A stretch of DNA of 64,000 nt from an uncultured Ectothiorhodospiraceae bacterium (GTDB lineage: Bacteria > Pseudomonadota > Gammaproteobacteria > UBA9214). Location: the NCBI GenBank assembly GCA_964564245.1, contig CAZMAK010000001.1, positions 48,989 through 112,988 on the forward strand, written 5' to 3'. Of this stretch, positions 10,258 to 47,657 are shown in pieces (position 1 is the first letter of the stretch; each line of letters opens with the position of its first letter). The notes beneath the pieces are model-generated. The model was not told the DNA's origin, did not search any database, and worked only from the letters and a program-made list of their open reading frames with translations. A program made the translations under genes and the position numbers.

Positions 10258-10907
10258 CAGTCTTTCGTCTCGTGCGTATTGACGGTCACGGCGAGATTGA
10301 AATCCACAAACTGGGTCCTGTCGACCAGCGTGGTATTGATGATCCGCACATCCTGGATCTCCGGCTGCCGGTACATGCGCCTGACGAATTCCGACAGCGC
10401 GGAGTAGTCTTTCGCCTGGCCATGGATCTGCATCCGCGTCTCGATCTTCCAGGCCTCGTTGCTCTGCTTGCCATCGGTGGCCGGAATGACGATGAAATAG
10501 CCGTTGCTGGCCGTCTCCGGCCTGTGCTCGACCACGCTCCCGGCCCGGTTGAAATCCCAGGACAGGAACCAGACATCGCCTTCCACCATGGCCCGGTCGA
10601 CCGCCTCGAACATGGCGGAGGCCACCGCGCCTCCGCGCAGCCCGCGCAGCAGCACCAGCCGGCTTTCCAGTTCGGCGCGTTTCCGGTCCAGCTGCGTGAA
10701 CCGCTCGCGCTGTTGCGCCGACACCGCCTGGCGCGCCTGCAGGCCGGCGATCAACCGTCCGGTCCTGATCGCCTGGTAATGCAGCACGCCCAGTGCCAGC
10801 AGCAGGACGACCACCGCCAGTGCGACCGCCACGCCAATATTGAGCGCCTTGCCCTGCAGCCAGATACGACTGCGATAGTCGGCGGGTATCAGGTCGATTT
10901 CAGCCAT
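10257..10907 (-). CDS. PilN-like inner-membrane pilus assembly protein
   Basis: N-terminal IDLIP motif (like the INLLP of PilN), then a TM and a coiled-coil. 8-nt overlap with the PilM-like gene. Confidence 0.6.
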   Translation of the reverse strand: MAEIDLIPADYRSRIWLQGKALNIGVAVALAVVVLLLALGVLHYQAIRTGRLIAGLQARQAVSAQQRERFTQLDRKRAELESRLVLLRGLRGGAVASAMFEAVDRAMVEGDVWFLSWDFNRAGSVVEHRPETASNGYFIVIPATDGKQSNEAWKIETRMQIHGQAKDYSALSEFVRRMYRQPEIQDVRIINTTLVDRTQFVDFNLAVTVNTHETKD

Positions 10908-14488: not shown

Positions 14489-15419
14489 GGGTCGGACCTG
14501 TTTATCAGACTGATCCTCAAGCAATAAGTGTTCATATTTGGCTAAGGTATGGACCCTAAGCGTCGTTTCCAGGCTAAAAACGCAGTTTCAAGGAGGACAT
14601 GGATGCCTCGTGCACATCGCTATTTCCTGCCAGGCCATATCTGGCACATCACGCATCGCTGCCACAAGCGGCAGTTCCTGCTCAAGTTTGCGAAGGACCG
14701 CAGGGCCTGGGTGTACTGGCTCTATCAGGCACGCAAACGCTTTAACCTGTGCGTACTGAACTATGTTGTGACATCAAACCATATCCATTTGCTGGTTAAG
14801 GACACGGGGCGCGGAGAGATCTCGCGCAGTATGCAGTTGATTGCCGGGCGTGTGGCGCAACAGTTCAACCGACGCAAGGCACGCAAAGGCGCCTACTGGG
14901 AGGATCGCTATCATGCAACCGCCGTGCAGTCGGACGGACATCTGGCAAGGTGCATGGTCTACATCGACCTGAACATGGTCCGGGCCGGGGTGGTGGCACA
15001 TCCAGCGGACTGGGTGCATGCGGGTTACAACGAAATCCAGTCGTTGCCGAAGCGCTACCGCTGCGTCGATGTGGCAGCACTTTCCGCATTACTGGATTTT
15101 ACCGATGCGGATAGCTTGCGCGACGGACTGCGCACGCGAGTGGAACTGGCGCTTGCGAAGGGTAATCTGGAGCGCGACCCAGCGTGGACCATGAGTATCG
15201 CCGTGGGACAGCGCGACTACCTGGACGCGATCGGGCTCGAACTGAAGCTCAGTCATCCGGGGCGGAGGATTGAGGGAGACGCAGATCTATTATGCTTGCG
15301 GGAGGAACCGAGCAGTTATTCGAGCTAAAAAGTGCCAGAAAAGTATGGTCCAAGCTGAGAAATCAGTCGCTCAACCGCATTATGTGATTACTTATCAGGA
15401 TATTGGGAAGGTCCGACCC
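14489..15419 (+). mobile_element. REPtron-like unit: RAYT gene bracketed by inverted REP-like repeats
   Basis: Perfect 11-bp inverted repeat GGGTCGGACCT (14489-14499) / AGGTCCGACCC (15409-15419) flanks the transposase gene. The same core CAGGTCCGAC recurs in the 21-bp repeats at 23726-23747, 23875-23895 and 36807-36827. Confidence 0.5.
14603..15328 (+). CDS. REP-associated tyrosine transposase (RAYT; IS200/IS605-like Y1 HUH transposase)
   Basis: HUH motif NHIHLLV and catalytic-Tyr region GAYWEDRYH. AAGGAGG RBS 6 nt before ATG 14603. The track ORF starts further upstream at 14549. Confidence 0.8.
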   Translation: MPRAHRYFLPGHIWHITHRCHKRQFLLKFAKDRRAWVYWLYQARKRFNLCVLNYVVTSNHIHLLVKDTGRGEISRSMQLIAGRVAQQFNRRKARKGAYWEDRYHATAVQSDGHLARCMVYIDLNMVRAGVVAHPADWVHAGYNEIQSLPKRYRCVDVAALSALLDFTDADSLRDGLRTRVELALAKGNLERDPAWTMSIAVGQRDYLDAIGLELKLSHPGRRIEGDADLLCLREEPSSYSS

Positions 15420-15476: not shown

Positions 15477-18400
15477 TCACGGCGTGCACTGGATCTGGAT
15501 GTTGTCGAACCAGACTTCATCAGCCCACCCCAGCGTGGAAGAGCTGAGCAGCCGGATGGCGGTCGTACCCGAAATATAGGCACTGATATCCTGGCTGAAC
15601 GACCGGTAGCCGTAATCCGTACCCCAGCCCTGGAAGCGGGTGAGTTCGGTCCACGGCCCCGCCGACCCGTTGCTGGACACCTGCAGGGCCACATAATCGC
15701 TGCTGGTATCCAGCTGGTTGCGGCGATACTGCAATGACAACGTAGCCGTGGTCGCACCCGCCAGGTTGGCCTCGCGCAGCACACCCTCACCACCCCCGTC
15801 GTTATCCCGCACGCGCAGCTGGTTGGTCCCCGGCGTGGCGCTGGCGGTCGAATCGGCCCCGACCCATTCATCACCCGACTGCGCACCGTCTGCCTCGTTG
15901 ACCTCCTGCCAGTCGCCGGTCCAGCTAAGTGTGCCGTCATTGCCGGAATAGTTGTGTGCATTGAAGTCGTCGCGGTAGGTGCCACTGCACCCTCCGCCAC
16001 CGCCGCCACCGCCACCGCCGCCACCGCCACCGGTCGGTGGCACCTGGTCGGCATCCACCAGCACGATACCGCGCGGACGGCTCAGGCCGGAGGAGACGAT
16101 GGTCTCCACGTTGCCGCCGTCGGGATCGGAGCGCTGCACCCGCTGGTTGAGCGCATCGACCCAGTAGATCCGGTCGTGGTCCGCATCGTAGGCGATGTCC
16201 TGTGGCGCGTTCAGCCCGGTCACGATGGTTTCCATGTTGCTGCCGTCGAGGTTGGCGCGCCTGATCCAGTCGTTGCTGGCCCCGCCGGTCCAGTACATCT
16301 TGCCGTTTACCAGGTCCAGCGCACTGCCGACGGCGCCGGTCGGCCCGGTCGTGAGCGTGGTCACGGAGCTGCCATTGACTTTCATGCTCGATACCCGGCC
16401 ACTGCCGAACTCGGTCAGGTACATCTTGCCTGCGGACTTGTCCAGGCTGAGATAGGACGGCCGGTTCAGGGTATTGTTGACGAGCGTGGCGCCGCTGCCA
16501 TCGAGGTTGGCGCTCATGACCCGGCTGGAACCGTTGTCGTGGGTCCAGTACATCTTTCCGCCGGCCACATCCAGCTTGATGTCGAAGGTCACGTAGGCAT
16601 CATTATAGACGACCTCGCTGTTGCTGCCGTCCAGGTTCGCGCGCCGGATCTGGTAATTGTTGGTCCAGTAGAGCTTGCCGTTGACGGTGTCGATATCCAG
16701 CCCGGTCGGGCGGTCCAGCCCGGTCAGTACATCCTCCACATCGCTGCCGTCCTCGTCCGAGCGCTGGATCTTGTTGGCGACATCATCGGTCCAGTACACC
16801 TTCTTCGGCGGGACGGCCGGCACTCCGTCCATGCCCCACTGGATGGCACGCTGCACCAGCAGGCGGCCGTTGTTGTTGAGGTAGTCCCAGTTGAACTTGC
16901 CGGCCCGCCCGACCGGGACCGAGATGATACGAGCAACTGCATTACCACCGCCGAACATCTGTGCACCGGCTTCGATGGCCGAGAGTCCGGTGGCCCCGTT
17001 CAGACGGCCTAACGCCTGCAGGCCCGGCGCCGGGTTGGCGGTGACGGTCGCACCCTCCATAGCGAGGTTCCCGAGCGGGATCACGCCGAGCGGGAACAGC
17101 GCGGTGATGAACTGGGTGTTATCGGCGATCCCGATACTGTCGGTGACGGTGTAGCTGCCAGGATCGGCCACCCCGAGATTATCGTACTGCTCGGCCGGTT
17201 CGGTGATGACGGCGATGGGCGCCCTTTTCAGCCGGTTGCCAAGCGTGGCATCCGCCACGGTGTTGGAAACGTACACGGCATCGTTAGCCCCCATGGCAGC
17301 ATTCATGGTGGACTGGTCGACTCCATCGTCGATCAGTGTCACCACGTAGCCCCAGGACTCGAACAGGGTTTTGCGGGTGATATCCGCGGCGGCGGGAGCG
17401 GCCGCGTTCCCGACCACCAGCAGCAGGCGACCGCTGCCCTGTGGCAACTGGCAGACCACCCCGCATTCGCAGGCAAAGGTCAGCGTGAGTTGCGGGTGCT
17501 GCGCCGCAGCGGGGCTGTCGCTGCTGGTGAAGTCGATATCGCCGGCATTGCCACCGCCCTCGCGTAACAGGAAACCAAAGTTGGGGGCACCATCCAGCCA
17601 GTCCTGGACCTGTGCAGTGACATCCCACTCGTACCAGCCAGGCGCCATGGTGGGCAGGGTTACGCTGTCAATGACCGCGGCATCATAGTCACCGCCGGGG
17701 TTATTCCAGGCGGTCAACCCATCGTAGCTCTGGTAGGTCACACCCGCACCGGGCGGTGGCACCTGGTTGTCAAAGCTGCCTTCCACCCAGGCATGGGTAA
17801 CCCGGTGCAGATCAAGCCGGCCGTTGGACACACCGGAGCCGCCTTCCAGGTACAGACCCAGGTGGGCATCGGTGATGCGCGCGCCGGGCGGCAATACCTC
17901 CAGCGCAAAGCGCAGCAGCACATTGCGGTCATTCTTGATGTTCAGAATGGAGGAAGCACCGAAATTCGTGTTCTTGTGGGCACCGGCCCAGACAAAGGCA
18001 TCCTGCAGCTCGGCACCCGGCTGCAGGGTCGCCGAACTGACCGGCTGATAGAGCGGAATATCGTTACGAACGATGGTGTAGCTGGCACCACTGTCCAGCG
18101 TACCGGTTGCGGTCACCGCGGCGCGGTTGGACAAATTGCCATCCGTATACCTGACCTCCAGGTATGGCCGGTGACTGGCATCGCTGTCTTCCTTGCTGGC
18201 GAACTCCGTGGTATCCGTGCCGAGCAGCGTGGAAGACACGATAAGTACGCCGTAGTTCGGCTGCGCGCCACTGACCCAGCCCTGCACCAGCGCGGTCAGG
18301 TTGACATCGGCATACTGATCCTGCGGCGTGCCGGCCGGGATGCTGGCGACCGTCGAGGCATCGAAACTGGTACCGATGCTGTTCCAGGTCACCGTGGCCT

Positions 18401-18983
18401 CGTCCCAGGACGCGGTCACGCGGTGCACTGTCACCGGCAAGGTGTGTTTGAACCGGGTGACATACCAGTGCGCCACGGCGGACACGATCGTGGCACTGGC
18501 CGGGATGCCGGCATTCTCGATGTCGAAGCGGTAGTAGGGCCGGTCGTAGTTGCCGCCGAGCAGGTTGCTTTCCAGGCGCAGCGTGCCGTCGCTGCCGTGG
18601 TTGGCGTTGCCGTTGTTCTTGTCGATCCAGGCATCGTCGCTGACCGGCACACTGACGTTCGAGATCGTACTGCCCACCTTGTTGACAGTGATGGTGGTCG
18701 AATAGTGATGGGCGCCGAACGGCACGCTGGACAGACCGGTATAGGGACCGCAACCGGCTGTATCGATCTGCTGCAGGGTATGTTGCAGGCCGGCCCTGGC
18801 GACGTACTCCGCCTGCGTGTGCCCGGCCACGGTGCCGGTGGCATTGAGTTCGACTGCAGAGCCATGATTGATCATGAAGGCGACCACGGCAACCAGTGCG
18901 ATCAGCAGCACCACCGGCAGCAGCACGAAACCACGCCGGTCGTTTGCACAGGCCACACGCCGTGTCGATCTGACTCGACTCAC
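15477..18983 (-). CDS. giant minor-pilin/adhesin fusion: GspK/PilX-like N-terminus, two carbohydrate-binding-like domains, YWTD beta-propeller, Gly14 linker, C-terminal lectin-like domain
   Basis: N-terminal RRGFVLLPVVLLIALVAVVAF is a pseudopilin-type helix lacking Glu5, as in GspK. Two copies of a beta-sandwich module ending W(D/V)E(A/G)T/S..W.N. Six YWTD/YWT(N/H) repeats (YWTDDVANKIQRSD, LYWTNNYQIRRANLDGSN, MYWTHDNGSSRVMSANLDGS and others), as in LDL-receptor class B propellers. Gly14 tract. Stop overlaps the upstream pseudopilin start. Confidence 0.7.
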   Translation of the reverse strand: MSRVRSTRRVACANDRRGFVLLPVVLLIALVAVVAFMINHGSAVELNATGTVAGHTQAEYVARAGLQHTLQQIDTAGCGPYTGLSSVPFGAHHYSTTITVNKVGSTISNVSVPVSDDAWIDKNNGNANHGSDGTLRLESNLLGGNYDRPYYRFDIENAGIPASATIVSAVAHWYVTRFKHTLPVTVHRVTASWDEATVTWNSIGTSFDASTVASIPAGTPQDQYADVNLTALVQGWVSGAQPNYGVLIVSSTLLGTDTTEFASKEDSDASHRPYLEVRYTDGNLSNRAAVTATGTLDSGASYTIVRNDIPLYQPVSSATLQPGAELQDAFVWAGAHKNTNFGASSILNIKNDRNVLLRFALEVLPPGARITDAHLGLYLEGGSGVSNGRLDLHRVTHAWVEGSFDNQVPPPGAGVTYQSYDGLTAWNNPGGDYDAAVIDSVTLPTMAPGWYEWDVTAQVQDWLDGAPNFGFLLREGGGNAGDIDFTSSDSPAAAQHPQLTLTFACECGVVCQLPQGSGRLLLVVGNAAAPAAADITRKTLFESWGYVVTLIDDGVDQSTMNAAMGANDAVYVSNTVADATLGNRLKRAPIAVITEPAEQYDNLGVADPGSYTVTDSIGIADNTQFITALFPLGVIPLGNLAMEGATVTANPAPGLQALGRLNGATGLSAIEAGAQMFGGGNAVARIISVPVGRAGKFNWDYLNNNGRLLVQRAIQWGMDGVPAVPPKKVYWTDDVANKIQRSDEDGSDVEDVLTGLDRPTGLDIDTVNGKLYWTNNYQIRRANLDGSNSEVVYNDAYVTFDIKLDVAGGKMYWTHDNGSSRVMSANLDGSGATLVNNTLNRPSYLSLDKSAGKMYLTEFGSGRVSSMKVNGSSVTTLTTGPTGAVGSALDLVNGKMYWTGGASNDWIRRANLDGSNMETIVTGLNAPQDIAYDADHDRIYWVDALNQRVQRSDPDGGNVETIVSSGLSRPRGIVLVDADQVPPTGGGGGGGGGGGGGGCSGTYRDDFNAHNYSGNDGTLSWTGDWQEVNEADGAQSGDEWVGADSTASATPGTNQLRVRDNDGGGEGVLREANLAGATTATLSLQYRRNQLDTSSDYVALQVSSNGSAGPWTELTRFQGWGTDYGYRSFSQDISAYISGTTAIRLLSSSTLGWADEVWFDNIQIQCTP
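15991..16034 (-). repeat. (GGN)14-15 trinucleotide tract encoding a poly-Gly linker
   Basis: Forward strand reads ccTCCGCCACCGCCGCCACCGCCACCGCCGCCACCGCCACC. Protein has TGGGGGGGGGGGGGGC. Confidence 0.8.
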
Positions 18984-19939
18984 AGCGCACCCCCGACCTG
19001 TACCCGGGTATCCAGGCTGACGCTCCGGCCACTGACGGGATCGGTCAGCACCAGCGAGATGGTAACGAGCACCGCGCCGGCGGCGGTCGCCGGCAGACGC
19101 TCGACACGAAACCCGCTGACCTGATCGGCAATGGCGGATTCGATGAAATCGCGCCCGTCCACGACGCCGCTGCCATCCACATCCCAGGGCACCGGCTGAC
19201 GGCGGATCAGCTGTGTACCCTTCAGGTAAAACACCACCGGGTCGAGCCAGTCCTCGTTGCTGGCGCCGTCCTCGTCATCGTCGCTGCTGCTGCCCTCGTC
19301 GACCGTCCCGTCCGCGTCATCGTCGACACCGCAGATGCCCGGACAGCCGTCACCGTTGAGATCAGCACCGGGGTCCTCGTCGGTGTTGCTGTCGTTGTCG
19401 TCGTCGATCCCGTTGACCGGATCGAGGTTGGCGGTCGCCGACTCGTCGTCCGAGTCCGCGGCCCCGTTATCGACCCTGCCGTCCCCGTTATCGTCGATCA
19501 GGTAGATCCCGGGCGCCGCGTCGTTGGTCCAGTCGGCCGGCGGGTCCTCGTCGAAACGGCCGTCGCCGTCATTGTCCGCATCGGGCGTGCCGTTGCCGTC
19601 CAGGTCGGTAACATGATCGAGCGTCACCGCGACCACATTGTTGATGTTCTCCGGGTAGGCGGTCGCGGTATCGTCGTTGAGCGGGACCAGCAGGTGCGGA
19701 CTGCGACCGACCGCCTGCACGATCTGGTCCATGGCAAAGCGCGCATCGCGGTTGAGCGCACCGGTCTCCGAAACCGAGTCGAGGGTATCGAGCACCTGGC
19801 CGGTGACGCCGTTCAGGGCGGCAAGCAGTAGCGCGGACAGGGCCAGCGCCAGCAGCAGTTCGACGAGGGTAAAACCGCGCTGGCAGGCAGACCCCGCCCG
19901 GCTGGAAGCGGCGGGCGAGGGCAATATCGGGCTAGTCAT
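18980..19939 (-). CDS. GspJ/PilW-like minor pilin with an Asp-rich thrombospondin-type-3-like calcium-binding repeat insertion
   Basis: Prepilin motif QRG|FTLVELLLALALSALLLA after a 21-aa leader. Central region has 9 or more DxDxDG/DxDGDG-type repeats (DLDGNGTPDADNDGDGRFDED, DDNGDGRVDNG, DDDADGTVDEG). ATG at 19939 overlaps the upstream gene stop by 8 nt. Confidence 0.65.
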   Translation of the reverse strand: MTSPILPSPAASSRAGSACQRGFTLVELLLALALSALLLAALNGVTGQVLDTLDSVSETGALNRDARFAMDQIVQAVGRSPHLLVPLNDDTATAYPENINNVVAVTLDHVTDLDGNGTPDADNDGDGRFDEDPPADWTNDAAPGIYLIDDNGDGRVDNGAADSDDESATANLDPVNGIDDDNDSNTDEDPGADLNGDGCPGICGVDDDADGTVDEGSSSDDDEDGASNEDWLDPVVFYLKGTQLIRRQPVPWDVDGSGVVDGRDFIESAIADQVSGFRVERLPATAAGAVLVTISLVLTDPVSGRSVSLDTRVQVGGAL

Positions 19940-20423
19940 GGGCACTGCGCAGGGTCTCCAGTGCCGTGTCGCCGATCTCCACCCGCAGCCAGAGCAGGTC
20001 CGCCTCGGTGCCGGTAAACGGGTCAGCATCGCCATCCGCGTTGTCGCTGTCGTAACGCGACAGGTAAACATTGCGGGTCACCGTCCTGCCGTCCTGGAAC
20101 GTGACCGTGTCACTGTAACTGCCCGGCGTGACCCGGCTGCCGGCCGCCGTCGCGGCCGCATCCAGCGCGGCAAACGGCTCTGCCAGCAATTCCTCCATCC
20201 GCCCGGCCACCGCAAAGTGATCCTCGACCCGGTTGGCGTGCGCCCCGGCAGCGGCTTCCCCGGGTGACAGGGCCTCCAGTGCCGGCGCCAGCGCCAGCAT
20301 GATCAGCACGATCGCAATCAGCACCTCGACATAACTGATGCCGGCCATGCGGGCGCAACCGGTTTTACGCACCCTGGCCGGGCGTCTCCCGCACGCCGGC
20401 CGCCACGTCGTTACCCGGTTCAT
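19932..20423 (-). CDS. GspI/PilV-like minor pilin
   Basis: Prepilin-like G|ISYVEVLIAIVLIMLALAP with Glu at +5. The ATG forms an ATGA overlap with the stop of the upstream H-like pilin gene. The track ORF extends further upstream. Confidence 0.5.
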   Translation of the reverse strand: MNRVTTWRPACGRRPARVRKTGCARMAGISYVEVLIAIVLIMLALAPALEALSPGEAAAGAHANRVEDHFAVAGRMEELLAEPFAALDAAATAAGSRVTPGSYSDTVTFQDGRTVTRNVYLSRYDSDNADGDADPFTGTEADLLWLRVEIGDTALETLRSAHD

Positions 20424-20962
20424 TGCACGCTCACCCGGCCGCTGCTGCCGTCCAGGGTCAGTACCCGCTGCCGGCCGGCGATCCTGAACACGAGGCTGGC
20501 CTGCTCCAGGAACACCGGGTACGGTTTGCGGCAGTACGGTGTACCGTGGCCGTCGAACAGCGTTTCTCCGGTGCTCGAACAACTGCCGTGGTATCGGGCG
20601 CTGCTGCTGACCGAATCCACGGCCAGGTACGGCTGTGCCGCCAGGTCCACCGTGTAGGGCTGCCTGCTGAGCGGGTCACGCATGTCATACACCGGTGTCG
20701 GCGGGCTGGTAGTCATGTCGGCACTGAACAGGCGGATGGCCGGCGGGTCCGTGGTGATGGCAAAACCATGGGGAATGCCGGTGCGGATCGCCTCGTTGCG
20801 TGCGAAGCGGATGGCGTCGGCAAAGGCCTGGCTGGCGGCATCCAGCCGCTCCGGACCGGTCGACGACAAAAAAGGGATTGCCGCACTCGCGGCAATCCCC
20901 AGTATTGCGATGACAACCAGCAGCTCTACAAGAGTCAGGCCATGACTACGCAACGCCCGCAT
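20420..20962 (-). CDS. GspH/FimT-like minor pilin
   Basis: MRALRSHG|LTLVELLVVIAILGIAA prepilin signal. Size and position after the major pilin fit GspH/FimT. Confidence 0.65.
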   Translation of the reverse strand: MRALRSHGLTLVELLVVIAILGIAASAAIPFLSSTGPERLDAASQAFADAIRFARNEAIRTGIPHGFAITTDPPAIRLFSADMTTSPPTPVYDMRDPLSRQPYTVDLAAQPYLAVDSVSSSARYHGSCSSTGETLFDGHGTPYCRKPYPVFLEQASLVFRIAGRQRVLTLDGSSGRVSVQ

Positions 20963-20995: not shown

Positions 20996-21574
20996 TCAGT
21001 AGGCGTCGAACTGGGTGCCGCTACTGTCCTTGGACGTGTCATCGGCGATGAACTTGCCGGAGGTGGTGTCATAGCGCCAGCCCCCGCCCGCAGCGGCAGC
21101 GGTCATGTCCAGATCCCCGGTGGTCTCGATGGCCACGGTACCGTTGTGGGTCACCGGATTGGCCGGCAGGTCACCCTTGATGTAGGGGCCGAACGGATAT
21201 TCCACGGCAGCCGTATCCGTTGTATCGGAAATGCTGCAGGTCTGACCGGTGGAATTGGAATAGTATTTCAGCTGCTCGACCACCGCTGCCTGGCTGTCGG
21301 CGGCGCCACTGCCGACCGTACCACCGGTGCAGGTACCGCCACTCGAGGCCACCGCACCCGGGAACGCCCCGCTGTGCTGCTGGGTATACAGGTCAATGGC
21401 GCTGCGGATGCCGGACAGGTCGGAACGCAGTGCCGAGGCGGCGGCATCACCCGTCGAGGAGGCGAACTGCGGCACCACGATCGCGGCCAGGATGGCCAGG
21501 ATGATGGCGACGATCAACAATTCAACAAGGGTAAAACCTTCCTGGTTTGCCCTGTTCCCGTGTAGCGTAGTCAT
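20996..21574 (-). CDS. major type IV pilin / pseudopilin (MshA/GspG-like)
   Basis: Leader MTTLHGNRANQEG then FTLVELLIVAIILAILAAIVVPQF. C-terminal Cys pairs. AGGAG RBS 7 nt before the ATG at 21574. First gene of the G-H-I-J-K series. Confidence 0.75.
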   Translation of the reverse strand: MTTLHGNRANQEGFTLVELLIVAIILAILAAIVVPQFASSTGDAAASALRSDLSGIRSAIDLYTQQHSGAFPGAVASSGGTCTGGTVGSGAADSQAAVVEQLKYYSNSTGQTCSISDTTDTAAVEYPFGPYIKGDLPANPVTHNGTVAIETTGDLDMTAAAAGGGWRYDTTSGKFIADDTSKDSSGTQFDAY

Positions 21575-21882
21575 GGTTAACTCCTGTTCGCCCATATAGT
21601 ATGGTTTGGACAAACGGGGTATCGGCAAGTACCCGGGCGGCTTTAAAATATCAGGTTAATTAAGAGCTTCCAGCCACCCACCGCCATGACCGATGCTCTC
21701 CCGGCGAGCAACCGGATTTAACCATATAAACAGTGGGTTATCTATCTTCCGGACCTGGCTGACGGTGGCAAATCGCTTCAGGCTCGCCAGCTTGCAGAGC
21801 TGTGTGCGGGTAACTACTATAGCCCTGCATACGAGAAAACATATTCTTGCGCATACACAATAATGATTACGGAGGCTCTGTC

Positions 21883-22608
21883 ATGCAATTATTACGCACT
21901 GGCTGCGTGGTTCTCGCCTGTCTCGCAGGAGTTTCTCTAGAGGCCAACGCCCTCACCATTGACTTCGGCACGGTTAAGGATGCCAACGTGCAAAGCGACA
22001 GTTCCGGTCCGCTCGGGGGTGGCAGCGCAATCCTCGATCCCTTTACAAACAGTAGCTACAGCATCGATTCCTACATCGGATTTGATATCGCTGACTTTCA
22101 GTCGCTCGGAAACCCGGCTGTCGACGTTTCCCTCGATCTGTATGGCTTTGCTGCAAGAACCTCGCTGGTCCTGAATATCTATGGACTGAACGATCTGGTA
22201 TCTCCCGGCTGGTCAGAAAGCACCATCGACTGGACCAATGCACCCGGAATACAGTCAGATTCGATTGATCCTGCCACAACGACCCTGTTGTTTTCGGGGT
22301 CGGTCAGCTATACAGCGAATAACGTCATCAGCTTCAGTGACAGTTCTTTTGCTGATTTCATTAACAGCGACACAGATGGCCTGGTCACCTTCATTCTCAC
22401 GCAGCCAACCGCTACCAGCGAAAACCACGCATTCAGCAGCAAGGAATCCTCTGGCAATCCCGCTATCGGTCTCCCGGGTGACTATGCGCCCACACTGCAC
22501 ATTACAGCAGCGCCCGTCCCCGCCGCTGTCTGGCTGTTCGGTTCCGGCCTGCTGGGGCTGATCGTTGTGGCGCGGCGCCGGCACCGCGCCTCAGTGCACC
22601 GCCTGTGA
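21883..22608 (+). CDS. PEP-CTERM-anchored secreted protein with a carbohydrate-binding-like beta-sandwich domain
   Basis: Signal peptide MQLLRTGCVVLACLAGVSLEA. Domain ending WSESTIDWTNAPG is the same module as in the giant pilin-adhesin. C-terminus PVPAAVWLFGSGLLGLIVVARRRHR matches the PEP-CTERM sorting-signal architecture (VPxx, TM, RRR). GGAGG RBS before ATG 21883. Confidence 0.6.
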   Translation: MQLLRTGCVVLACLAGVSLEANALTIDFGTVKDANVQSDSSGPLGGGSAILDPFTNSSYSIDSYIGFDIADFQSLGNPAVDVSLDLYGFAARTSLVLNIYGLNDLVSPGWSESTIDWTNAPGIQSDSIDPATTTLLFSGSVSYTANNVISFSDSSFADFINSDTDGLVTFILTQPTATSENHAFSSKESSGNPAIGLPGDYAPTLHITAAPVPAAVWLFGSGLLGLIVVARRRHRASVHRL

Positions 22609-23715
22609 CAGCTTGAAGATCGGCAGGATCAGCGAACTCACGATCAGACCGACCACGGCACCCATGACGATCAGCATGACCGGTTCCACCATGCGCGAGA
22701 AGGTTGCCAGGTTGCGCGCCAGTTCGCGTTCGTAATAGAGCGCGATCCGCCCCAGCACCAGCGGCAGCTTGCCGGTTTCCTCCCCGGTGGTCACCATCTG
22801 GCTCACCATCGGTGGAATGAAACTCGCGGTCTGGAATGCAGCGGAAAAACCGCCGCCCTCGTTGACCGTTTCCTCCAGCCCGGTCAGGAAGCGGCGGAAC
22901 TCCCGGTTGGCAACCACCTCACGGCAGGCGGACAGGGCGTCCGGCACGCTCACGCCATGTTCCAGCGACAGGCCCAGTACCCGCAGCGACTGGATCAGGT
23001 ATATCCGGGTATAGATGTCGCGCAGGCCGAAGGCCGACAGCTTGAACCGGTCGAGCGCGGCACGACCGGCGTCACTTCGAAGCCACCACACCAGCAGGGC
23101 CACTGCAACCGCCACGCCGGCGCCCAGTTCCGGCCAGTACCGGACAAGGAAATGACTGAACCGCATCAGTACCAGCGTGGTGACCGGCAGCTTGTCGGCA
23201 ATGCTGGCAAACATGACGGCGAACTTCGGGAACACCTCCATCAGCACGAACACCACGACAAACAGCGAGAATGCGATCAGGAAGGCCGGGTAGGACAGGG
23301 CGGAAGTCACGGTACGGCGCAGCTCCATCCGCTTCTCGTCCATGTTTTTCAGCTCCAGCAGCACACTGTCCAGAAAGCCGCCCTGCTCCGCGGCCGCGAC
23401 CAGCGTGACGTAACTGACCGGGAACATGTCCGGGAAGTGGGTCAGTGCCCGGGAAAAGGAATTCCCGCTGGTCACCTGTTCCTGCAGCCGGTTGATGATG
23501 GCCGCCATGGCCGGATTCGCGACCTGTTTGCCCAGCGCGTTCAGCGCGGCATGCAGGGGGGTGCCCGTCTCCAGCAACAGCGACAGCTGCTCGGTAAAGA
23601 AGATACGGTCCTGCACACCGGGCCTGTGTCGCGCAAACAGTCGCGTGCGCGGTTTCGGAGTTGCCAGTGCGGCCTTCCGGGCAGTCTCCCGCAACGCGGT
23701 TATTTCAAGCGCCAT
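22591..23715 (-). CDS. type II/IV secretion platform protein (GspF/PilC/MshG family)
   Basis: Two T2SS-F repeats and three TM segments. Conserved C-terminus GE(E)TGKL...L...YYERE. Confidence 0.85.
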   Translation of the reverse strand: MALEITALRETARKAALATPKPRTRLFARHRPGVQDRIFFTEQLSLLLETGTPLHAALNALGKQVANPAMAAIINRLQEQVTSGNSFSRALTHFPDMFPVSYVTLVAAAEQGGFLDSVLLELKNMDEKRMELRRTVTSALSYPAFLIAFSLFVVVFVLMEVFPKFAVMFASIADKLPVTTLVLMRFSHFLVRYWPELGAGVAVAVALLVWWLRSDAGRAALDRFKLSAFGLRDIYTRIYLIQSLRVLGLSLEHGVSVPDALSACREVVANREFRRFLTGLEETVNEGGGFSAAFQTASFIPPMVSQMVTTGEETGKLPLVLGRIALYYERELARNLATFSRMVEPVMLIVMGAVVGLIVSSLILPIFKLSQAVH

Positions 23716-23725: not shown

Positions 23726-23895
23726 CCTGGGAGCCTGTCGGGCCTGGGCGATCGTAGCGAGCCGTGTGGGAGAACGAGGCCATTTTTCCGATCGTTCGAG
23801 GAGAATAGCCGTCGCTATTTGACGAGGAGGAGCGGAACAATGGACCGCTGTCCCACCGGCGCAGTAGATCAGTCCCAGGTCCGACAGGCTCCTAG
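23726..23895. mobile_element. MITE/REPIN-like element (about 170 bp) with 21-bp terminal inverted repeats
   Basis: CCTGGGAGCCTGTCGGGCCTGG (23726-23747) and its near-perfect inverted copy CCAGGTCCGACAGGCTCCTAG (23875-23895) bound the ATPase-platform intergenic region. 19 of 21 positions match. The left repeat contributes part of the platform gene RBS. The right repeat contains the ATPase stop codon. Confidence 0.55.
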
Positions 23896-25931
23896 ACATT
23901 GATGACACGGGAAACCTCCTCGATCGTGGTTTCACCCGCCCGCACGTGATCCAGGCCATCGACAAACAGATTGCGGAAATCCCGCTCATGTAGATGCCGG
24001 TGCAGCTCGTCGCGCCCCGGACTGGTGGTGATCAGGCGTTGCAACGATTCATCACATTGCAGCACCTCGTGTATACCCATGCGCCCGCGATAGCCGGAAT
24101 CGTAGCATTCGTTACAGCCACGCCCGCGCGCCAGCTGCACCTGCCCGTCCCAGCCGAACCGGCTGATCAGGCCCGGTTCGGCCACATAGCGCGTCTTGCA
24201 GGCCGGGCAGATGACGCGGACCAGCCGTTGCGCAACCACGCCGATCAGTGCGGAGGACAGCAGATACGGTTCCACGTCCATATCGATCATGCGCGTGATT
24301 GCGCCGATCGCATGATTGGTGTGCAGGGTCGACAGCACCAGATGGCCGGTCAGGGCCGCCTGCACGGCGATTTCCGCCGTCTCGCGGTCACGGATCTCAC
24401 CCACCATCACGATATCCGGATCCTGGCGCAGCGTGTGGCGCAGGATGGTGGAGAAGGTCAGGCCGATGTGCTCATGCACCTCGTTCTGGTTGACCACCTC
24501 GATCTGGTATTCGACCGGATCCTCGATGGTCACGATGTTCTTTTCCATGCTGTTGAGGTAGTTCAGCGCGGCATACAGCGAGGTGGTCTTGCCGCTGCCG
24601 GTCGGTCCGGTGACCAGGATCAGTCCGTGGCTGCTGTCGAGCAGGGACTTGAACAGGGTCAGGTTGCCCGCGCTCATGCCGAGCTTGTTGACGTCCAGCA
24701 GCGAACGGTTCTTGTCCAGCACGCGCAATACCACCTTCTCCCCGAACAGGCCCGGCAGTGAACTGAAGCGCAGGTCCACCGCGCGACCCTGGGTACGTAC
24801 CTGGATACGGCCGTCCTGCGGCATGCGACGCTCGGCGATATCCAGGTTGGCCATCACCTTGAGACGGGAGACAATGGCCGGGTGGTATTCGGCACTGAGC
24901 GTGGTGACCTCGTACAACACCCCGTCGATACGGAAGCGTACGCGGGTCCGGTTTCGTGACGGCTCGATGTGAATGTCGCTGGCGCCGTCACGGATCGCGC
25001 GCTGGACCAGCGAATTGACCAGGTTGACGATCGGACTGCCTTCCGCCATCTCGTCGATCGCGGCGTAGTCGTCGCGGGCAATATTCTCGACCACGGTAAA
25101 GTCGGCATCGACATCGCCGATCAGTTCAATGGTGTCCACGTTACCTGCGTAGGCATCGTTGAGGGCGTTCAGGATGTCCTCGCGCCGTGCAATCACCGGC
25201 TGCACGCGGCAACCGGAAAGCTTCTCGACCTCGGCGAACGCGGGCATGGCCTGCGGGTCCGAGGTGGCCAGGAACAGCACATCATGTATCTTCTGCAGCG
25301 GCAGCATCTGCAGGCGTTTCGCAACCCGCATGTCGATGATTCCCGTCACGGCAGGATCGTAGATACCGGCACGCAGGCGCACGCAGGGAATCGACAGCTG
25401 TTCACCCAGCGCGGTCAGCACGTCCTGATCGGACACCCACCCCTTGTCGATGATGATCTGCCCCATGCGCCGCGACGTCCGCTTCTGCAGCTCGATCGCC
25501 TCGGCAATACGTTCCTCCGTGATCAGACCCCGTTCCAGCAGGATATCTCCCAGGCGTTGTGTCCCGCCGCTGCGCGTAGTGCGTTGCACGGGGTCCACGT
25601 CCACCATGGGGACATAACTGGAAAACGAGGTAAGCGTCAGGATATCCAGCACGATCGTGTTGGCTCGCGCCAGCTTCAGCCAGCCGCCCTGCCGTACCGC
25701 CTGTTCCTGGATGTCTACCAGCGCCTCCAGCGCCGCACTGTTGAGCAGCTTGACCGATCCCAGGTCCACTACGAGCTGTGCATCGCCCGGTCGCATGCTT
25801 TCGTTCGCGGCGGCCGTCAGCGCCCGGATATCCTCATCACTGAGCAACGAGGTACGTGGCACCAGCTGGGTCATCACGCCCACGCGGGTACGCAACACCT
25901 CGCTCGTCAGATATTCGGGTGAAACACTCAT
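23892..25931 (-). CDS. pilus extension ATPase of the GspE/MshE family with N-terminal STAS-like domain and MshEN-type c-di-GMP-binding motifs
   Basis: Walker A GPTGSGKT, Asp box, His box, CPACK Zn motif. MshEN motif RLGDILLERGLITEERIAEAIELQKRT at about residue 118. The preceding 110 aa (LVVDLGSVKLLNSAALEALVDIQEQAVRQGGWLKLARANTIVLDILTLTSF) align with SpoIIAA-type STAS domains. 679 aa, versus about 575 aa for canonical MshE. Confidence 0.9.
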   Translation of the reverse strand: MSVSPEYLTSEVLRTRVGVMTQLVPRTSLLSDEDIRALTAAANESMRPGDAQLVVDLGSVKLLNSAALEALVDIQEQAVRQGGWLKLARANTIVLDILTLTSFSSYVPMVDVDPVQRTTRSGGTQRLGDILLERGLITEERIAEAIELQKRTSRRMGQIIIDKGWVSDQDVLTALGEQLSIPCVRLRAGIYDPAVTGIIDMRVAKRLQMLPLQKIHDVLFLATSDPQAMPAFAEVEKLSGCRVQPVIARREDILNALNDAYAGNVDTIELIGDVDADFTVVENIARDDYAAIDEMAEGSPIVNLVNSLVQRAIRDGASDIHIEPSRNRTRVRFRIDGVLYEVTTLSAEYHPAIVSRLKVMANLDIAERRMPQDGRIQVRTQGRAVDLRFSSLPGLFGEKVVLRVLDKNRSLLDVNKLGMSAGNLTLFKSLLDSSHGLILVTGPTGSGKTTSLYAALNYLNSMEKNIVTIEDPVEYQIEVVNQNEVHEHIGLTFSTILRHTLRQDPDIVMVGEIRDRETAEIAVQAALTGHLVLSTLHTNHAIGAITRMIDMDVEPYLLSSALIGVVAQRLVRVICPACKTRYVAEPGLISRFGWDGQVQLARGRGCNECYDSGYRGRMGIHEVLQCDESLQRLITTSPGRDELHRHLHERDFRNLFVDGLDHVRAGETTIEEVSRVINV

Positions 25932-28135
25932 TGGATGCAGCGCCGGGACCCGCCGGTATGCAGGGACTCCAGGTAGCCCGTCAGGGGTGACGGCCTGTCG
26001 ATGCCGTATCCCTGCAGATAGTCCACGCCCATCCGCGTCAACTGTTCGGCAATGGCGTCGTTTTCCACGTATTCGGCAATCGTCTTCAGTCCCATGACGT
26101 GACCGATCTGTATGACGGAAGCCACCATGGCGGAAGACACCGGGTCCTCGAGTATCTGCCGCACGAAGGAGCCGTCGATCTTCACGTACTCGACCGGCAG
26201 GCCCTTCAGGTAACTGAACGAACTCAATCCGGTCCCGAAGTCATCCAGCGAGAAACGGCAACCGATCGCCTTCAGTTGCCCGATGATCGCTAGCGCCGCC
26301 TCCCGGTTACCGATCGCGGCCGTTTCGGTCACCTCGAAACAGAGACAGTCCGGTGCAATGCGGTACTCACCGATCTTTCCGGTAATGTAGGTCGCAAGCT
26401 CCAGGTCGGCAAGCGACTGTCCGGACAGGTTGATGGAGACGATGCCCTGCCCCGCACTCCCGGCGATGCCGGCCTCGGCCAGGCTGGCCAGGGTTGCATT
26501 GATCACCCAGCGATCGATGGACGGCATCAGGTTGAACTGTTCCGCCGCCGGCAGGAAGCTGTCCGGGCTGAGCAGGTGACCGTCCTCGTCGACCAGCCGC
26601 ATCAGTACCTCGAAATGGAACTGTTCGCCGTTCGCGGAAACCGGCCGGATGGTCTGGCAATGCAGCATGACCCGGTCTTCGCGCAATGCCCTCTGGATAC
26701 TCGCCACGCACTGGATGTTACTACGCCGCGTCGCCAGCCCGGTGTCATCCTCACCAAATGCCTGGATCTGGCCGGTGCCCAGCTCCTTGGCGGCCGCGCG
26801 CGCGAGCTCGGCTGATTCCATCGCCTCACCGGCACTGGCGGTCTGCGGCCCGACCATGACCACACCGGTAGCCATCTGCAGGTCGATGGAGGCGGAATCC
26901 AGGTGTATCTGGTCACGCTGCACATGATCGCGCAACATGTACGCGACCCTCACACCCTGATCGATCCCGGTCCTTTCCAGCAGTACGCCATAGCGGCCCT
27001 CGCCGAGATACCCGATGGTATCCGTACCGCGCAGCTTGTTGCGCAACTTCTCGCCGACGATACGTATGACGGTGTCACCGGCCTTGCGGCCGTAGGTCTC
27101 GTTGATGACCTGCAGGCGCCCGATGTCGATATTCAGCAGACAGTGGTGCAGACCTTCACCGCTGGCATCCTGTATGGCCCGCTGCAGCACGGTCTCGAAG
27201 GCATGCGGGTTCATCAGTCCGGTCAGCGTATCGTAGTTGGCCTGCGTGATCTTGGCGATTTTCCGGCCCATGACCTTGAGCAGGTTGCGGTCGCTGTTGA
27301 AAAAGTCCGGCCGGTAGATGTGGTTAAGACAGACCAGCACCCCCTCGATCTCGCCACGGGCGTTGACTACCGGGCAAGACAGCAGCTTGTAGGGGATATC
27401 GAGGGAGAGTTCCTCACGTCGCTGGTCATAGAGTTCATTGATCAGCAGGCAATCGGGCTGTGTAATGGCATACGGCAGGAACTTCCCGGCCAGCACCTCG
27501 AACAGCTCATCGGGATGCAGTACCGGATCGCGCGGGCCGGCGGCATACAGGGTGCGCCTCCGGTCCGGGTAAAACAGCGCCACCATGTCGACATCGAGAT
27601 ACTCGACGTAGCTTTCGACCAGCGATGTCAGTGCGACATTTTCCTGCTCGATGCTGGCGCTCTCTTCCACATCGTAGACCAGGTTCAGCTCGTCGTAGCG
27701 ACCGGCCAGTTCCCTGGCCATGGTATCCAGTTCGACAGTCAGGCGGTATTCCTTTTCCACACACCCCACGATACAGGCGAAGGCCGCGTTCACGGCGGCA
27801 TCCAGCCCGTCGGCGGGCAGCTCGTCACCGGGATCACCCGTGCCGATGAGCCATCCTGCGCACCTGTCGGCCGGTGTGCGGATTTCCATCAGGCAGGTGA
27901 TGATCCCGTCGTTGCGTTCCACCACAAGCCGCCGGCCGGTAGCCGGCACTGCATGGATTCCCGCCGCATCGACGTTGAAGCGTGTCCGGGAAATCTGCGC
28001 AGCGTTGTCCGTATCACCGTCCAGTACCAGCCCGGCACAGTCACACACGTAGAGATCCAGGCCACGCGGCAGTAGCTGGCGCAGCAGCGCGAAATAGTTC
28101 CCTAAACCGATCTGGCTCAACGGACCTGCCGGCAT
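25928..28135 (-). CDS. c-di-GMP phosphodiesterase: sensor (GAF/PAS-like), degenerate GGDEF, EAL
   Basis: EAL-domain motifs EVLMRL, DDFGTG, KIDGSF. The GGDEF position reads GEGRYGV, which is degenerate. ATGA-type overlap with the ATPase start (25928/25931). Confidence 0.85.
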   Translation of the reverse strand: MPAGPLSQIGLGNYFALLRQLLPRGLDLYVCDCAGLVLDGDTDNAAQISRTRFNVDAAGIHAVPATGRRLVVERNDGIITCLMEIRTPADRCAGWLIGTGDPGDELPADGLDAAVNAAFACIVGCVEKEYRLTVELDTMARELAGRYDELNLVYDVEESASIEQENVALTSLVESYVEYLDVDMVALFYPDRRRTLYAAGPRDPVLHPDELFEVLAGKFLPYAITQPDCLLINELYDQRREELSLDIPYKLLSCPVVNARGEIEGVLVCLNHIYRPDFFNSDRNLLKVMGRKIAKITQANYDTLTGLMNPHAFETVLQRAIQDASGEGLHHCLLNIDIGRLQVINETYGRKAGDTVIRIVGEKLRNKLRGTDTIGYLGEGRYGVLLERTGIDQGVRVAYMLRDHVQRDQIHLDSASIDLQMATGVVMVGPQTASAGEAMESAELARAAAKELGTGQIQAFGEDDTGLATRRSNIQCVASIQRALREDRVMLHCQTIRPVSANGEQFHFEVLMRLVDEDGHLLSPDSFLPAAEQFNLMPSIDRWVINATLASLAEAGIAGSAGQGIVSINLSGQSLADLELATYITGKIGEYRIAPDCLCFEVTETAAIGNREAALAIIGQLKAIGCRFSLDDFGTGLSSFSYLKGLPVEYVKIDGSFVRQILEDPVSSAMVASVIQIGHVMGLKTIAEYVENDAIAEQLTRMGVDYLQGYGIDRPSPLTGYLESLHTGGSRRCIQ

Positions 28136-28527
28136 TGCCGCTCTCCTCCGGAATCGTCGTTGCTGAAATATTCCTTCAGCCTGGCCAGCAGCCGGCGGAT
28201 GCTTACCGGCTTCTCCAGAAAGTCCAGGTTGCCTATGCCCTGTGACCAGCGGCGGAGTTCGTCTTCCGCGCGCGCGGACAGGACATAGATGCCGAAGCTG
28301 CGCCCGGGCATCTCCTCGGCGATCCGGTCACACAGGTCCCTGCCGCTCATCTGCGGCATATCGATGTCCGTGATCAGCAGATCCGGGGGATTGCCGCGGA
28401 TTTTTTCCAGGGCCTGGCAGCCGTTACAGGCCTCGTCCGTCGAATAGCCGGCCGCGTCCAGCGCCAGCTTCAGCACCCGGATCACATGTGGTTCGTCGTC
28501 AACGAGCAGAATTCGTTTCCCGGTCAT
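28117..28527 (-). CDS. single-domain response regulator (receiver only)
   Basis: ILLVDDE...DLLITDIDMPQMSG...K receiver motifs. No output domain. Overlaps the kinase stop and the PDE start. Confidence 0.8.
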   Translation of the reverse strand: MTGKRILLVDDEPHVIRVLKLALDAAGYSTDEACNGCQALEKIRGNPPDLLITDIDMPQMSGRDLCDRIAEEMPGRSFGIYVLSARAEDELRRWSQGIGNLDFLEKPVSIRRLLARLKEYFSNDDSGGERQCRQVR

Positions 28528-30383
28528 ACCGCCCGCCTCAGCAGTTCAGCTTCCTTGTCGAACTCGATGACAAATTCCGATCCTTCGCCAGGCGCGCTGT
28601 TCACCGTCAGTGTCCCGTGGTGAAGCTGGATGATCTCGCGCGCCAGCGCCAGCCCGAGACCATGCCCGCTCCTGCGGGACACCTCTTCGTTCTGCGAACG
28701 ATAGAACTTGTCGAATATCTTCTCCTGCTCCTCCGGCGAGATACCGATCCCCTTGTCCCGGACGGATACTCGCACGGTCCGTTCCGTTTCCTCGACGGCC
28801 ATCCTGACCATGCCGTGCTCGTCGCTGTACTTGATCGCATTGGTCAGCAGGTTATTGACAGCGATACGGATCAGGTCCTTGTCCAGCGCCACCGGGCTGA
28901 TCTCGTGGGGCAGGTCGAGCTGGAAATCGATGTGCTTTTCCTGCCCCCCGCGGGCACAGGCATTGAAGGTGTCCTCGAGCAGGTCCCGCAGCTTCACCCG
29001 CTTGCGCTCGATGGATATGCTGCCGGTCTCGATCTTGGTGATGCTGAGGATGTTATTGATCAGCAGGGCAAGCCGTTCGACCTCGTCATGAATGATATTG
29101 GCCGCCTCGATGCGGAACTGTTCGCGTCCGCCCTCCGCGCCCTGCAGCATCTCGCTGTACATCGCCAGGACATTCAGCGGCGTCTTCAGTTCGTGTGAAA
29201 CGTGCGCAACGAACTCTCCACTGCTGTCCCGCGCCAGTTTCTCCGCGGTGATGTCACGGAACACGACCAGGGTACCGGGCGGCTCGGCGGTATCCTGCGG
29301 GGAAAACAGCGGGTAGGGGGAAATCGCGAAGGTGCGGCCCGGCAGCGATCCCGGCGTGTATTCGAGCGCATCGCTGTGATACCCGTGACTCCTGCGACCA
29401 CCCTGGCCGGAAAGAAAGGCAATGATCCCGGGATCCTTGCACCATTCCACCGGCTTCTTGCCGACGATATCCCGGTTGCTGACATCCAGCAGCTGTCCAA
29501 CCCTGGCATTGGCGAGACTCACGGTACCGCTTTCATCCAGCACCAGGACTGCCTCCGGGAACGATTGCAGCACGGACTCGACACGCGAACGCCGGTAACC
29601 AAGCAGCTTTGCCGAGGTCTCCAGCTGTGTACGATCCTCCTCCAGCTCGCCGATCCGGTGTTGAGACGCATCGATGAAGCGGTTGAAACGCTCCATGAAA
29701 TCCTGCAATTCCGCACTCGCGGCAAGCTCCACGCTGCCGGCAAGCCCGTTGCCGCCCATCAGTGTGTCCAGTCGCGTATTGACCTCCCGGACGGGACGCA
29801 CCTCCCTGCGCAACAGAAGATAAAACAGCGGGGTCAGCAAGAAGATCGGCAGGGCGAAGCTCGCCACAAATTCCAGCTGGTCCGGCCTTGGTCCGACGAC
29901 AGGCTGCAGGTATCCGAGACGGACATACCCGGCAAGCTGGTCATGCTCGAACAGCGGGGCATGAAATTCGATCATCTTCCGGTTACTGCCGGGCATCACC
30001 AGACGGCGTTGCCCGACCCAGCCGGCGGGCTCGGTTGGCAACGATGCGGCAGGGACGACGACATCGTTTCCGGCGATCTCCTCCACCATGCGGCCCCCGG
30101 CATCCACGATCTCCAGATAGGCCAGGTCCGAGGTGCCGCGTATCTGCTGCAGGATGGAAAGGATCCCGGCCTTGCCGGTCTCCGGGACAAACCGGGCGTA
30201 GGGGATACGCGTCAGGATGCGGACCAGGCTGGCGCCCTGGCTTTGTATGTTGTTTTCCTCACTGCGCTGCTGGTAGCGAAACAGCAACAGGACGGTGATC
30301 GCGATCACCGCCAGCGACGCAACGATCATGGTCAGCCCGAGTCGCTCTTTTCTCCATGCGCTCGCCAACCTGCTGAGAGGCAT
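28524..30383 (-). CDS. sensor histidine kinase (periplasmic sensor, HAMP, PAS, HisKA, HATPase)
   Basis: H-box VSHELKTPLN. G-boxes DKGIGI and GHGLGL. Two TM segments flanking a roughly 150-aa periplasmic region. Confidence 0.85.
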   Translation of the reverse strand: MPLSRLASAWRKERLGLTMIVASLAVIAITVLLLFRYQQRSEENNIQSQGASLVRILTRIPYARFVPETGKAGILSILQQIRGTSDLAYLEIVDAGGRMVEEIAGNDVVVPAASLPTEPAGWVGQRRLVMPGSNRKMIEFHAPLFEHDQLAGYVRLGYLQPVVGPRPDQLEFVASFALPIFLLTPLFYLLLRREVRPVREVNTRLDTLMGGNGLAGSVELAASAELQDFMERFNRFIDASQHRIGELEEDRTQLETSAKLLGYRRSRVESVLQSFPEAVLVLDESGTVSLANARVGQLLDVSNRDIVGKKPVEWCKDPGIIAFLSGQGGRRSHGYHSDALEYTPGSLPGRTFAISPYPLFSPQDTAEPPGTLVVFRDITAEKLARDSSGEFVAHVSHELKTPLNVLAMYSEMLQGAEGGREQFRIEAANIIHDEVERLALLINNILSITKIETGSISIERKRVKLRDLLEDTFNACARGGQEKHIDFQLDLPHEISPVALDKDLIRIAVNNLLTNAIKYSDEHGMVRMAVEETERTVRVSVRDKGIGISPEEQEKIFDKFYRSQNEEVSRRSGHGLGLALAREIIQLHHGTLTVNSAPGEGSEFVIEFDKEAELLRRAV

Positions 30384-47536: not shown

Positions 47537-47657
47537 GGCCCACCCGGCATGCAGGCCGGCAGATCCGCTTCGGAACCACGAGTATCTCGCGGCTACATGG
47601 CAGTTTGATGGTGTTTTTGTTACCGGTCCGTGACAGCCGCCGGCATCGCGCCGTGTC

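Follow-up and report, generated by a model that had tools for sequence, protein, structure and literature searches.

PEP-CTERM-class proteins are abundant in environmental bacteria, and few of them have an assigned function. Among those that do, PepA of Zoogloea and Aquincola (family NF033554) causes soluble exopolysaccharide to become bound to the cells (PMC9850573). Hormogonium PEP-CTERM proteins of Nostoc punctiforme, which has cyanoexosortase B, are needed for pilus-driven motility on polysaccharide; there the exosortase-sorted proteins make the cell surface adhere to polysaccharide and in this way work with the type IV pilus (PMC12188702). Two CBM96 modules have been solved. In that of Defluviitalea phaphyphila Dp0100 (PDB 7VBO) a basic groove binds alginate (PMC9971899); the ligand of the other (8WAB) is chondroitin sulfate. 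Here we describe a small gene (21883-22608, plus strand) of an uncultured Ectothiorhodospiraceae bacterium whose product combines two elements of known kinds, a DNRLRE/CBM96 domain and a VPLPA/PEP-CTERM tail, and which is located inside a predicted type IV filament operon. The window in which it was analyzed is the whole 64,000-nucleotide stretch of contig CAZMAK010000001.1. We lean, at somewhat better than even confidence, towards the small protein being an optional exosortase-type surface or matrix lectin tied to the cyclic di-GMP (c-di-GMP)-controlled type IV filament system.

Like PEP-CTERM and VPLPA-CTERM substrates, the small protein has a signal peptide and, at its C-terminus, a short motif, a hydrophobic helix and an arginine cluster. 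Unlike typical substrates, it continues for six residues beyond the basic cluster and lacks Pro-Glu-Pro. PepA is likewise a secreted protein of similar size with a sorting tail, but the domains of the two proteins are unrelated. Membership of the PepA family was rejected: the score against NF033554 was 39.6 bits (cut-off 80) and the match was gone once the tail had been removed. In N. punctiforme the link to the pilus is genetic and regulatory rather than through an embedded gene, the proteins are not CBM96 proteins, and the organism belongs to another phylum. The solved CBM96 modules are appended to polysaccharide lyases, whereas the small protein is a stand-alone domain on a sorting tail. 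The operon resembles MSHA-type and type II secretion system (T2SS)-like operons (with tips MshQ, PilY1 and GspK) in its MshEN ATPase, T2SSF protein, G/H/I/J/K-like pseudopilins, PilMNOP, secretin and c-di-GMP enzyme. It differs from them in gene order, in the fusion of STAS to the ATPase, in a GspK-like tip with DNRLRE modules and a YWTD propeller, and in the optional opposite-strand sorting-tail gene between the platform and pilin genes. In the literature we found nothing on PEP-CTERM genes in pilus or T2SS operons, and no description of a recurrent CBM96 sorting-tail gene inside a type IV filament operon that has a tip pseudopilin of the same family.

A CBM96 protein with a sorting-type tail

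The small gene lies between the genes for the platform protein and the major pilin, both of which are on the minus strand. Its open reading frame (ORF), start and neighbours were all verified where the sequence-only reading of this DNA had placed them, and its features are as follows.

21575-21882 (no strand): divergent intergenic region of 308 bp, from the pilin start to the small-gene start, holding GGAGG at 21871-21875
21883-22608, plus strand: small gene, 241 amino acids, ATG start, ORF read from the sequence
21883-21951, plus strand: Sec-type signal peptide, residues 1-23, MQLLRTGCVVLACLAGVSLEANA, cleavage predicted after A-N-A, assigned by inspection
21952-22509, plus strand: acidic CBM96/DNRLRE beta-sandwich, residues 24-209, net charge -18
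22510-22587, plus strand: sorting-signal-type tail, residues 210-235, with the motif APVPAA, the hydrophobic helix VWLFGSGLLGLIVVA and the basic cluster RRRHR
22588-22608, plus strand: six-residue extension ASVHRL and stop, antisense to the T2SSF terminus (overlap 22591-22608)

The ATG lies seven bases 3' of the GGAGG ribosome-binding site (21871-21875), and gene callers predicted the identical 241-residue product on independent metagenome contigs with identical sequence. The 18-nucleotide overlap of the 3' ends proved exact, with the small-gene stop (22606-22608) inside the T2SSF gene (22591-23715, minus strand). The description of the gene as antisense within the operon applies to this overlap only; elsewhere it has its own slot between two minus-strand transcription units. 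Extension and overlap are both peculiar to the window lineage, as orthologues end 0-4 residues past the basic cluster and 73-301 nucleotides from T2SSF. A population variant of the small protein (P0244) ends in ASVPRR rather than ASVHRL, and the extension overlapping T2SSF (22588-22605) is thus variable.

The product had been read as a secreted protein with a beta-sandwich domain, and this was borne out by the signal peptide seen on inspection and by CBM96/DNRLRE matches above their cut-offs. The n-region arginine, hydrophobic core and AxA site are kept in all orthologues in the alignment, and residues 2-17 were modelled as a helix by AlphaFold2. A lipoprotein signal was rejected: the cysteine in the signal peptide is not kept across orthologues, while the AxA site is. 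The small protein scored 37.8 bits against NF033679 DNRLRE (cut-off 34) and 33.8 bits against PF24517 CBM96 (cut-off 26), the DNRLRE match survived removal of the tail (39.0 bits), and the family scores of all orthologues ranged from 34.6 to 46.7. When the orthologue profile was compared with the PDB, the top fold matches were the two solved CBM96 modules (7VBO, E 1.1e-8; 8WAB, E 5.1e-7), which are only 21-23% identical to the domain of the small protein. Because the family cut-offs are passed, the match is independent of the tail and the solved modules are found by the orthologue profile, the CBM96/DNRLRE assignment, made by profile comparison, appears secure. NCBI already labels one orthologue 'DNRLRE domain-containing protein'. 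The mature domain has a net charge of -18 in the window copy and of -12 to -18 across all orthologues. Since both solved modules bind polyanionic glycans, 7VBO via a basic groove, while the small domain carries a charge of -18, their ligands cannot be transferred to it.

The tail sequence APVPAAVWLFGSGLLGLIVVARRRHR was confirmed at the C-terminus of the small protein, and the tripartite layout that accompanies an N-terminal signal peptide in PEP-CTERM proteins is present. Nine tail positions (P211, P213, W217, L218, S221, G222, L223, G225 and L226) are invariant in the orthologue alignment, though the orthologues are just 32-67% identical overall. The orthologous group lies on both sides of the cut-off of TIGR03370 (VPLPA-CTERM), with three orthologues passing (P0002, 26.1; P0006, 34.1; P0008, 27.8) and the L008 copy at 22.1. 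A six-frame scan found no second similar tail in the window, and hundreds of otherwise unrelated proteins match the small protein through the tail alone. The tail pattern has more than 600 genomic matches in gammaproteobacterial metagenome-assembled genomes, often several per genome and on unrelated proteins, with hosts that include Thiohalobacter, Thiogranum, Thiotrichaceae and Ca. Thiodiazotropha. Among the 79 similar-tail loci that we fetched there were two or three per genome in related metagenome-assembled genomes, compared with the one in the window.

An exhaustive profile search returned 43 cluster representatives at E <=1e-30 and 1139 at E <=1e-10. The top 150 contained 83 short proteins, all with the order signal peptide-domain-tail; 48 of the 83 end in a canonical PEP-CTERM tail (VPEP, helix, RRR), and another 21 have the VP[VLI]P[AG] variant. 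By these profile matches the small protein belongs to a large uncharacterized family of CBM96 proteins of about 240 residues, within which PEP-CTERM and VPLPA-CTERM tails appear to be interchangeable. Its own tail is best classed, from its motif and model scores, as the VPLPA-CTERM variant of the PEP-CTERM class rather than as canonical PEP-CTERM, and the window copy is linked to PEP-CTERM because homologues of the same small architecture mostly end in the canonical form. Because the tail is invariant, occurs on hundreds of unrelated proteins and can be swapped with canonical PEP-CTERM, we take it to be a genuine signal for sorting and not simply an anchor in the membrane. No published processing enzyme for the VPLPA-CTERM variant was found in the literature.

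Recurrence, loss and replacement of the gene

Full-length orthologues with 39-68% identity occur on the same strand and in the same slot relative to T2SSF and the pilin in six operon lineages, namely the window (identical to metagenome contig L087), L001-L003, L004, L005/L006/L088, L007 and L008. The L008 locus comes from a complete metagenome-assembled chromosome of 3.3 Mb. This sample was found through the small gene itself and is therefore biased towards presence. Across the six lineages T2SSF identity to the window drops to 44-46%, and the small gene has diverged about as much as its neighbours. Wherever synonymous sites are not saturated, the small gene has a ratio of non-synonymous to synonymous substitution rates (dN/dS) of 0.19-0.31, and it is therefore real and under purifying selection. 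The same pairing with the pilus is found in several uncultured bacteria of marine type. Distant CBM96 relatives (<=36% identity), which were fetched by domain-derived patterns, were not in such filament operons.

A second sample consisted of six related operons found via T2SSF homologues of 61-70% identity (L131-L136), and here the small gene was absent, decayed or replaced in all six. The replacement is in L134, whose T2SSF is 63% identical: the same slot and strand (7316-7996, opposite strand to T2SSF) hold a secreted protein of 226 residues whose domain is unrelated and not recognizable as a known one, and whose VPLPA-like tail, MPLPAAAWLMGSGLLGIF...KRR, is barely recognized by TIGR03370 (13.6 bits). 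Because this protein carries a similar tail on an unrelated domain, the exchange suggests that the slot favours secreted proteins with a sorting tail rather than CBM96 specifically. CBM96-bearing tip pseudopilins persist without a small CBM96 gene in L132, L134 and L135. As the small gene is often lost among related operons, it is optional, an accessory of the system rather than a piece of its core; most economically it is read as an ancestral accessory gene that is dispensable and has been lost repeatedly.

The small gene is more conserved than T2SSF in distant comparisons (55-57% vs 44-46%) and less conserved in the closest comparison (65% vs 88%). Its GC content at third codon positions (GC3) is 0.50-0.63 vs 0.74-0.85 in its neighbours in three high-GC lineages (window, L001 and L007), and equals that of the neighbours in three low-GC lineages (L004, L005 and L008). 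These contrasts could stem from transfer out of a lineage with lower GC or from selective constraints that differ.

Some of the slots carry further elements. REP-type decay is seen in L131 (10523-11132), L135 (7131-7659) and L136 (7125-7762), with the gaps of the latter two filled by repeats. In L001 a REP-associated tyrosine transposase (RAYT) gene (9150-9701; NF047646, 174.6 bits) lies between the small gene and the pilin, and L131, a close relative of L001, has a matching ORF of 183 residues with no Pfam match in the RAYT position. In L005 an extra gene of 213 residues (7359-8000, plus strand) lies 3' of the small gene on the same strand; its product carries a lipoprotein-type signal (LSGC) and matches no family.

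The small protein and the pilus

The sequence-only reading had assigned the domain of the small protein to the same type as that found in the giant tip pseudopilin of the operon. The family assignment stands, as both proteins pass the DNRLRE/CBM96 models, but their direct similarity is negligible: comparison of the small domain with the pseudopilin modules gave a BLASTP E value of 0.73, an hhalign probability of 5.9% and, with the hidden Markov model of the orthologues, 3.6 bits. On these values we rejected the idea that a duplication or an exchange had recently taken place between small domain and tip modules. At the level of motifs the two match in W-x-E-x-T-x-W and F-[AS]-S-K-E...P-x-L, and the pseudopilin modules are also acidic (net charges -9 and -13). 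All orthologous tip pseudopilins carry at least one DNRLRE module, the 307-residue one of L005 included. Small domain and tip modules are accordingly distant members of one family and not copies of one module. The common ligand of small protein and pilus tip that had been proposed from the shared domain is a possible but unsupported conjecture, because the sharing holds at family level only, and the ligand of the small protein need not equal that of the tip modules.

In the reading that we favour, of an optional surface or matrix lectin, the small protein would pass the inner membrane by the Sec route and be held there transiently by its C-terminal helix. The tail would be processed by an exosortase-type enzyme presumably encoded elsewhere in the genome, and the protein would finally reside at the surface of the cell or within the matrix of exopolysaccharide, a destination also put forward for other PEP-CTERM proteins. 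There, beside the pilus, it may serve adhesion or aggregation in the manner of a lectin, and it probably adds to the same adhesion or aggregation behaviour as the filament; PepA and the hormogonium PEP-CTERM proteins are precedents. The tie to the filament is supported by the constant strand and slot in six lineages, by the location of distant CBM96 relatives outside such loci and by the tail-bearing replacement in L134.

A number of observations weigh against this reading. The tail of the window copy is sub-threshold both for TIGR03370, its best model (24.1 vs a cut-off of 25.35), and for PF07589 PEP-CTERM (15.7 vs 20.7), and it lacks the Pro-Glu-Pro motif, having A-P-V-P-A-A where orthologues have VP[VL]P[AG]A. 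What survives of the PEP-CTERM-type tail put forward from the sequence is thus an exosortase-type tripartite tail of the VPLPA-CTERM variant; at the level of models the window copy falls short, while three orthologues pass TIGR03370 and homologues mostly bear canonical PEP-CTERM. No exosortase was found within the 64-kb window in Pfam scans of 30 window proteins, and a six-frame screen for window ORFs with at least four predicted helices yielded four only, a SulP transporter, a CLC channel, TMEM175 and a membrane GGDEF protein, none of them an exosortase. Likewise, a screen of 33 multi-helix ORFs around the 79 similar-tail loci showed no exosortase among the 25 families listed, and ten of these ORFs, compared individually with NCBIfam, gave no exosortase match. 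The filament system dispenses with the gene in L132, L133, L135 and L136, where the slot is empty or filled with REP-like repeats, and in L131 the gene has decayed to signal-peptide and tail fragments. The acidic surface of the small domain, judged from the computed overall charge, is unlike the basic groove of 7VBO. Finally, the small gene is probably expressed together with the filament because it is transcribed divergently from the pilin promoter region, an argument from divergent geometry only. No correctly spaced sigma-54 -24/-12 element is present in the window's intergenic region between small gene and pilin, and sigma-54-like matches in L004, L005 and L008 are weak, barely above background (0.1-0.45 per kb per strand). 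A sigma-54 promoter common to small gene and pilin was rejected on these two grounds.

A rival explanation is that the small protein is a dedicated cargo of the machine: once exported by Sec and processed at its tail, it would be driven by the pseudopilus through the secretin, and the machine would serve as the outer-membrane route. The machine has a T2SS-like G-H-I-J-K pseudopilin set and a secretin, the small gene is tightly and repeatedly linked to it, and the slot in L134 holds another secreted tail-bearing protein. There is precedent in the T2SS, whose substrates are often encoded beside their machine (pulA next to pulC-O) and include GlyGly-CTERM proteins such as VesB. According to PMC12188702 it is unknown how PEP-CTERM proteins get past the outer membrane, which leaves room for such a route. 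However, most related machines are without such a gene, implying that the machine has another primary role, and the adhesin-like tip of 1168 residues, the separate PilM/PilN/PilO and the long pilin speak for a pilus that is extended and against a secretion piston. We therefore regard a cargo role as unlikely. It is a distinctly long shot that machine and protein form a pair in which a pseudopilus with a lectin tip of the same family delivers or presents the PEP-CTERM-class protein and so supplies the missing outer-membrane export route, but if true this would be the first concrete testable answer to how PEP-CTERM-class proteins leave the periplasm.

Two further alternatives were weighed. If the tail were left uncleaved, the small protein would be a C-terminally anchored periplasmic factor in pilus biogenesis, for example docking or chaperoning the DNRLRE-bearing tip pseudopilin. 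A signal peptide followed by a single C-terminal helix and a basic cytoplasmic stub fits an inner-membrane anchor, no exosortase was seen in the window or in the membrane proteins checked near similar-tail loci, and the supposed client belongs to the same domain family. Yet a tail common to hundreds of unrelated proteins and swappable with canonical PEP-CTERM has the signature of a sorting signal, DNRLRE-bearing tip pseudopilins occur without the small gene, and the pairwise similarity of the small domain to the tip modules is negligible, all of which makes an anchored factor quite improbable. The gene might also be a passenger with no functional tie to the pilus, in a loosely constrained slot between T2SSF and pilin that gathers foreign genes. 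Its local GC content of 0.51-0.56 and GC3 of 0.63, vs 0.78-0.82 in its neighbours and with the same pattern in L001 and L007, would suit this, as would its frequent loss and the variability of the slot, which may be empty, filled with REP repeats, or occupied by a RAYT gene or a different gene. But strand and position are kept across lineages whose T2SSF identity is 44-46%, with divergence like that of the neighbours; the remnants in L131 point to loss and not to repeated gain; purifying selection is evident; GC3 equals that of the neighbours in low-GC lineages; and the replacement in L134 too carries a similar tail. We consider a mere passenger improbable.

Because these orthologues are joined physically to a pilus operon under c-di-GMP control, with a tip protein of the same lectin family, the locus offers a compact natural test case for whether a surface protein and a pilus cooperate in adhesion or aggregation, and also for whether a filament machine helps to export the small protein. 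CBM96 has so far been characterized on polysaccharide lyases alone; the finding widens it to a large family of small surface proteins that stand alone, and to the tips of pili. The immediate significance is moderate, and the lead is modest but real, tempered by the dispensability of the gene.

The surrounding filament system

Judged from its gene content, the locus is a type IV filament system with a T2SS-like pseudopilin order and a c-di-GMP-related regulatory module; control by a two-component system besides c-di-GMP is predicted. Its parts, all on the minus strand, are given below; the boundaries of the minor pseudopilins were taken from gene calls on identical contigs.

25928-30383, minus strand: PAS histidine kinase, stand-alone receiver and GAF-GGDEF-EAL protein, regulatory genes upstream in the same direction
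23892-25931, minus strand: STAS-MshEN-T2SSE assembly ATPase, 679 amino acids (PF00437 461.7 bits, PF05157 51.8 bits, plus STAS)
22591-23715, minus strand: T2SSF/PilC-type platform protein, 374 amino acids (PF00482 177 bits, two repeats)
20996-21574, minus strand: major pilin/pseudopilin, 192 amino acids, prepilin-type (N_methyl 33 bits; GspG-like N-terminus 44.6 bits, below cut-off)
18980-20962, minus strand: three minor pseudopilins, GspH-like (20420-20962), 163 amino acids (19932-20423) and Asp-rich, 321 amino acids (18980-19945)
15477-18983, minus strand: giant GspK-like tip pseudopilin, 1168 amino acids, with two canonical DNRLRE/CBM96 modules, a YWTD beta-propeller and a Gly14 linker
7901-12036, minus strand: PilM, PilN, PilO, PilP/GspC-like protein and secretin, part of the filament system

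The regulatory genes have the same order in L001, L004, L008 and L131-L136. The major pilin is transcribed divergently from the small gene with 308 bp between them, and the GC content of this intergenic region is about 0.50-0.52 vs 0.62-0.65 in the flanks. Sigma-54-like -24/-12 elements were noted 77-118 nucleotides upstream of the small gene in L004 (9924, plus strand), L005 (6337, plus strand) and L008 (9868, plus strand), and in L004 another lies upstream of the pilin (9850, minus strand).

The giant tip pseudopilin matches NF033679 with 196 bits in two stretches, PF24517 with 126 bits in three stretches and Ldl_recept_b with 62.5 bits; its GspK N-terminus is weak, at 18 bits. A run of 14 glycines (a GGN codon repeat; 15990-16031, minus strand) joins the YWTD propeller to the C-terminal domain and may be a flexible linker or a slippage-prone tract. 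A similar poly-Gly run is found in a LamG protein of 943 residues in L001. The Asp-rich minor pseudopilin (18980-19945) matched no family model besides the N-methyl motif; it has long DxDxDG-type repeats (e.g. DLDGNGTPDADNDGDGRFDED) that resemble calcium-binding repeats.

Farther along the window, at 46487-50882, two GT4 glycosyltransferases, a PAP2 phosphatase and a metallophosphoesterase form an envelope- or polysaccharide-related cluster, with no exosortase or recognizable exopolysaccharide export gene among the clustered genes. Inserted between the giant pseudopilin and pilM are an IS200/RAYT-like Y1 transposase gene (14549-15328, plus strand), an HDOD gene (13525-14427, minus strand) and a membrane GGDEF gene (12185-13372, minus strand). 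HDOD and/or GGDEF genes are likewise located 3' of the tip pseudopilin in L132 and L135.

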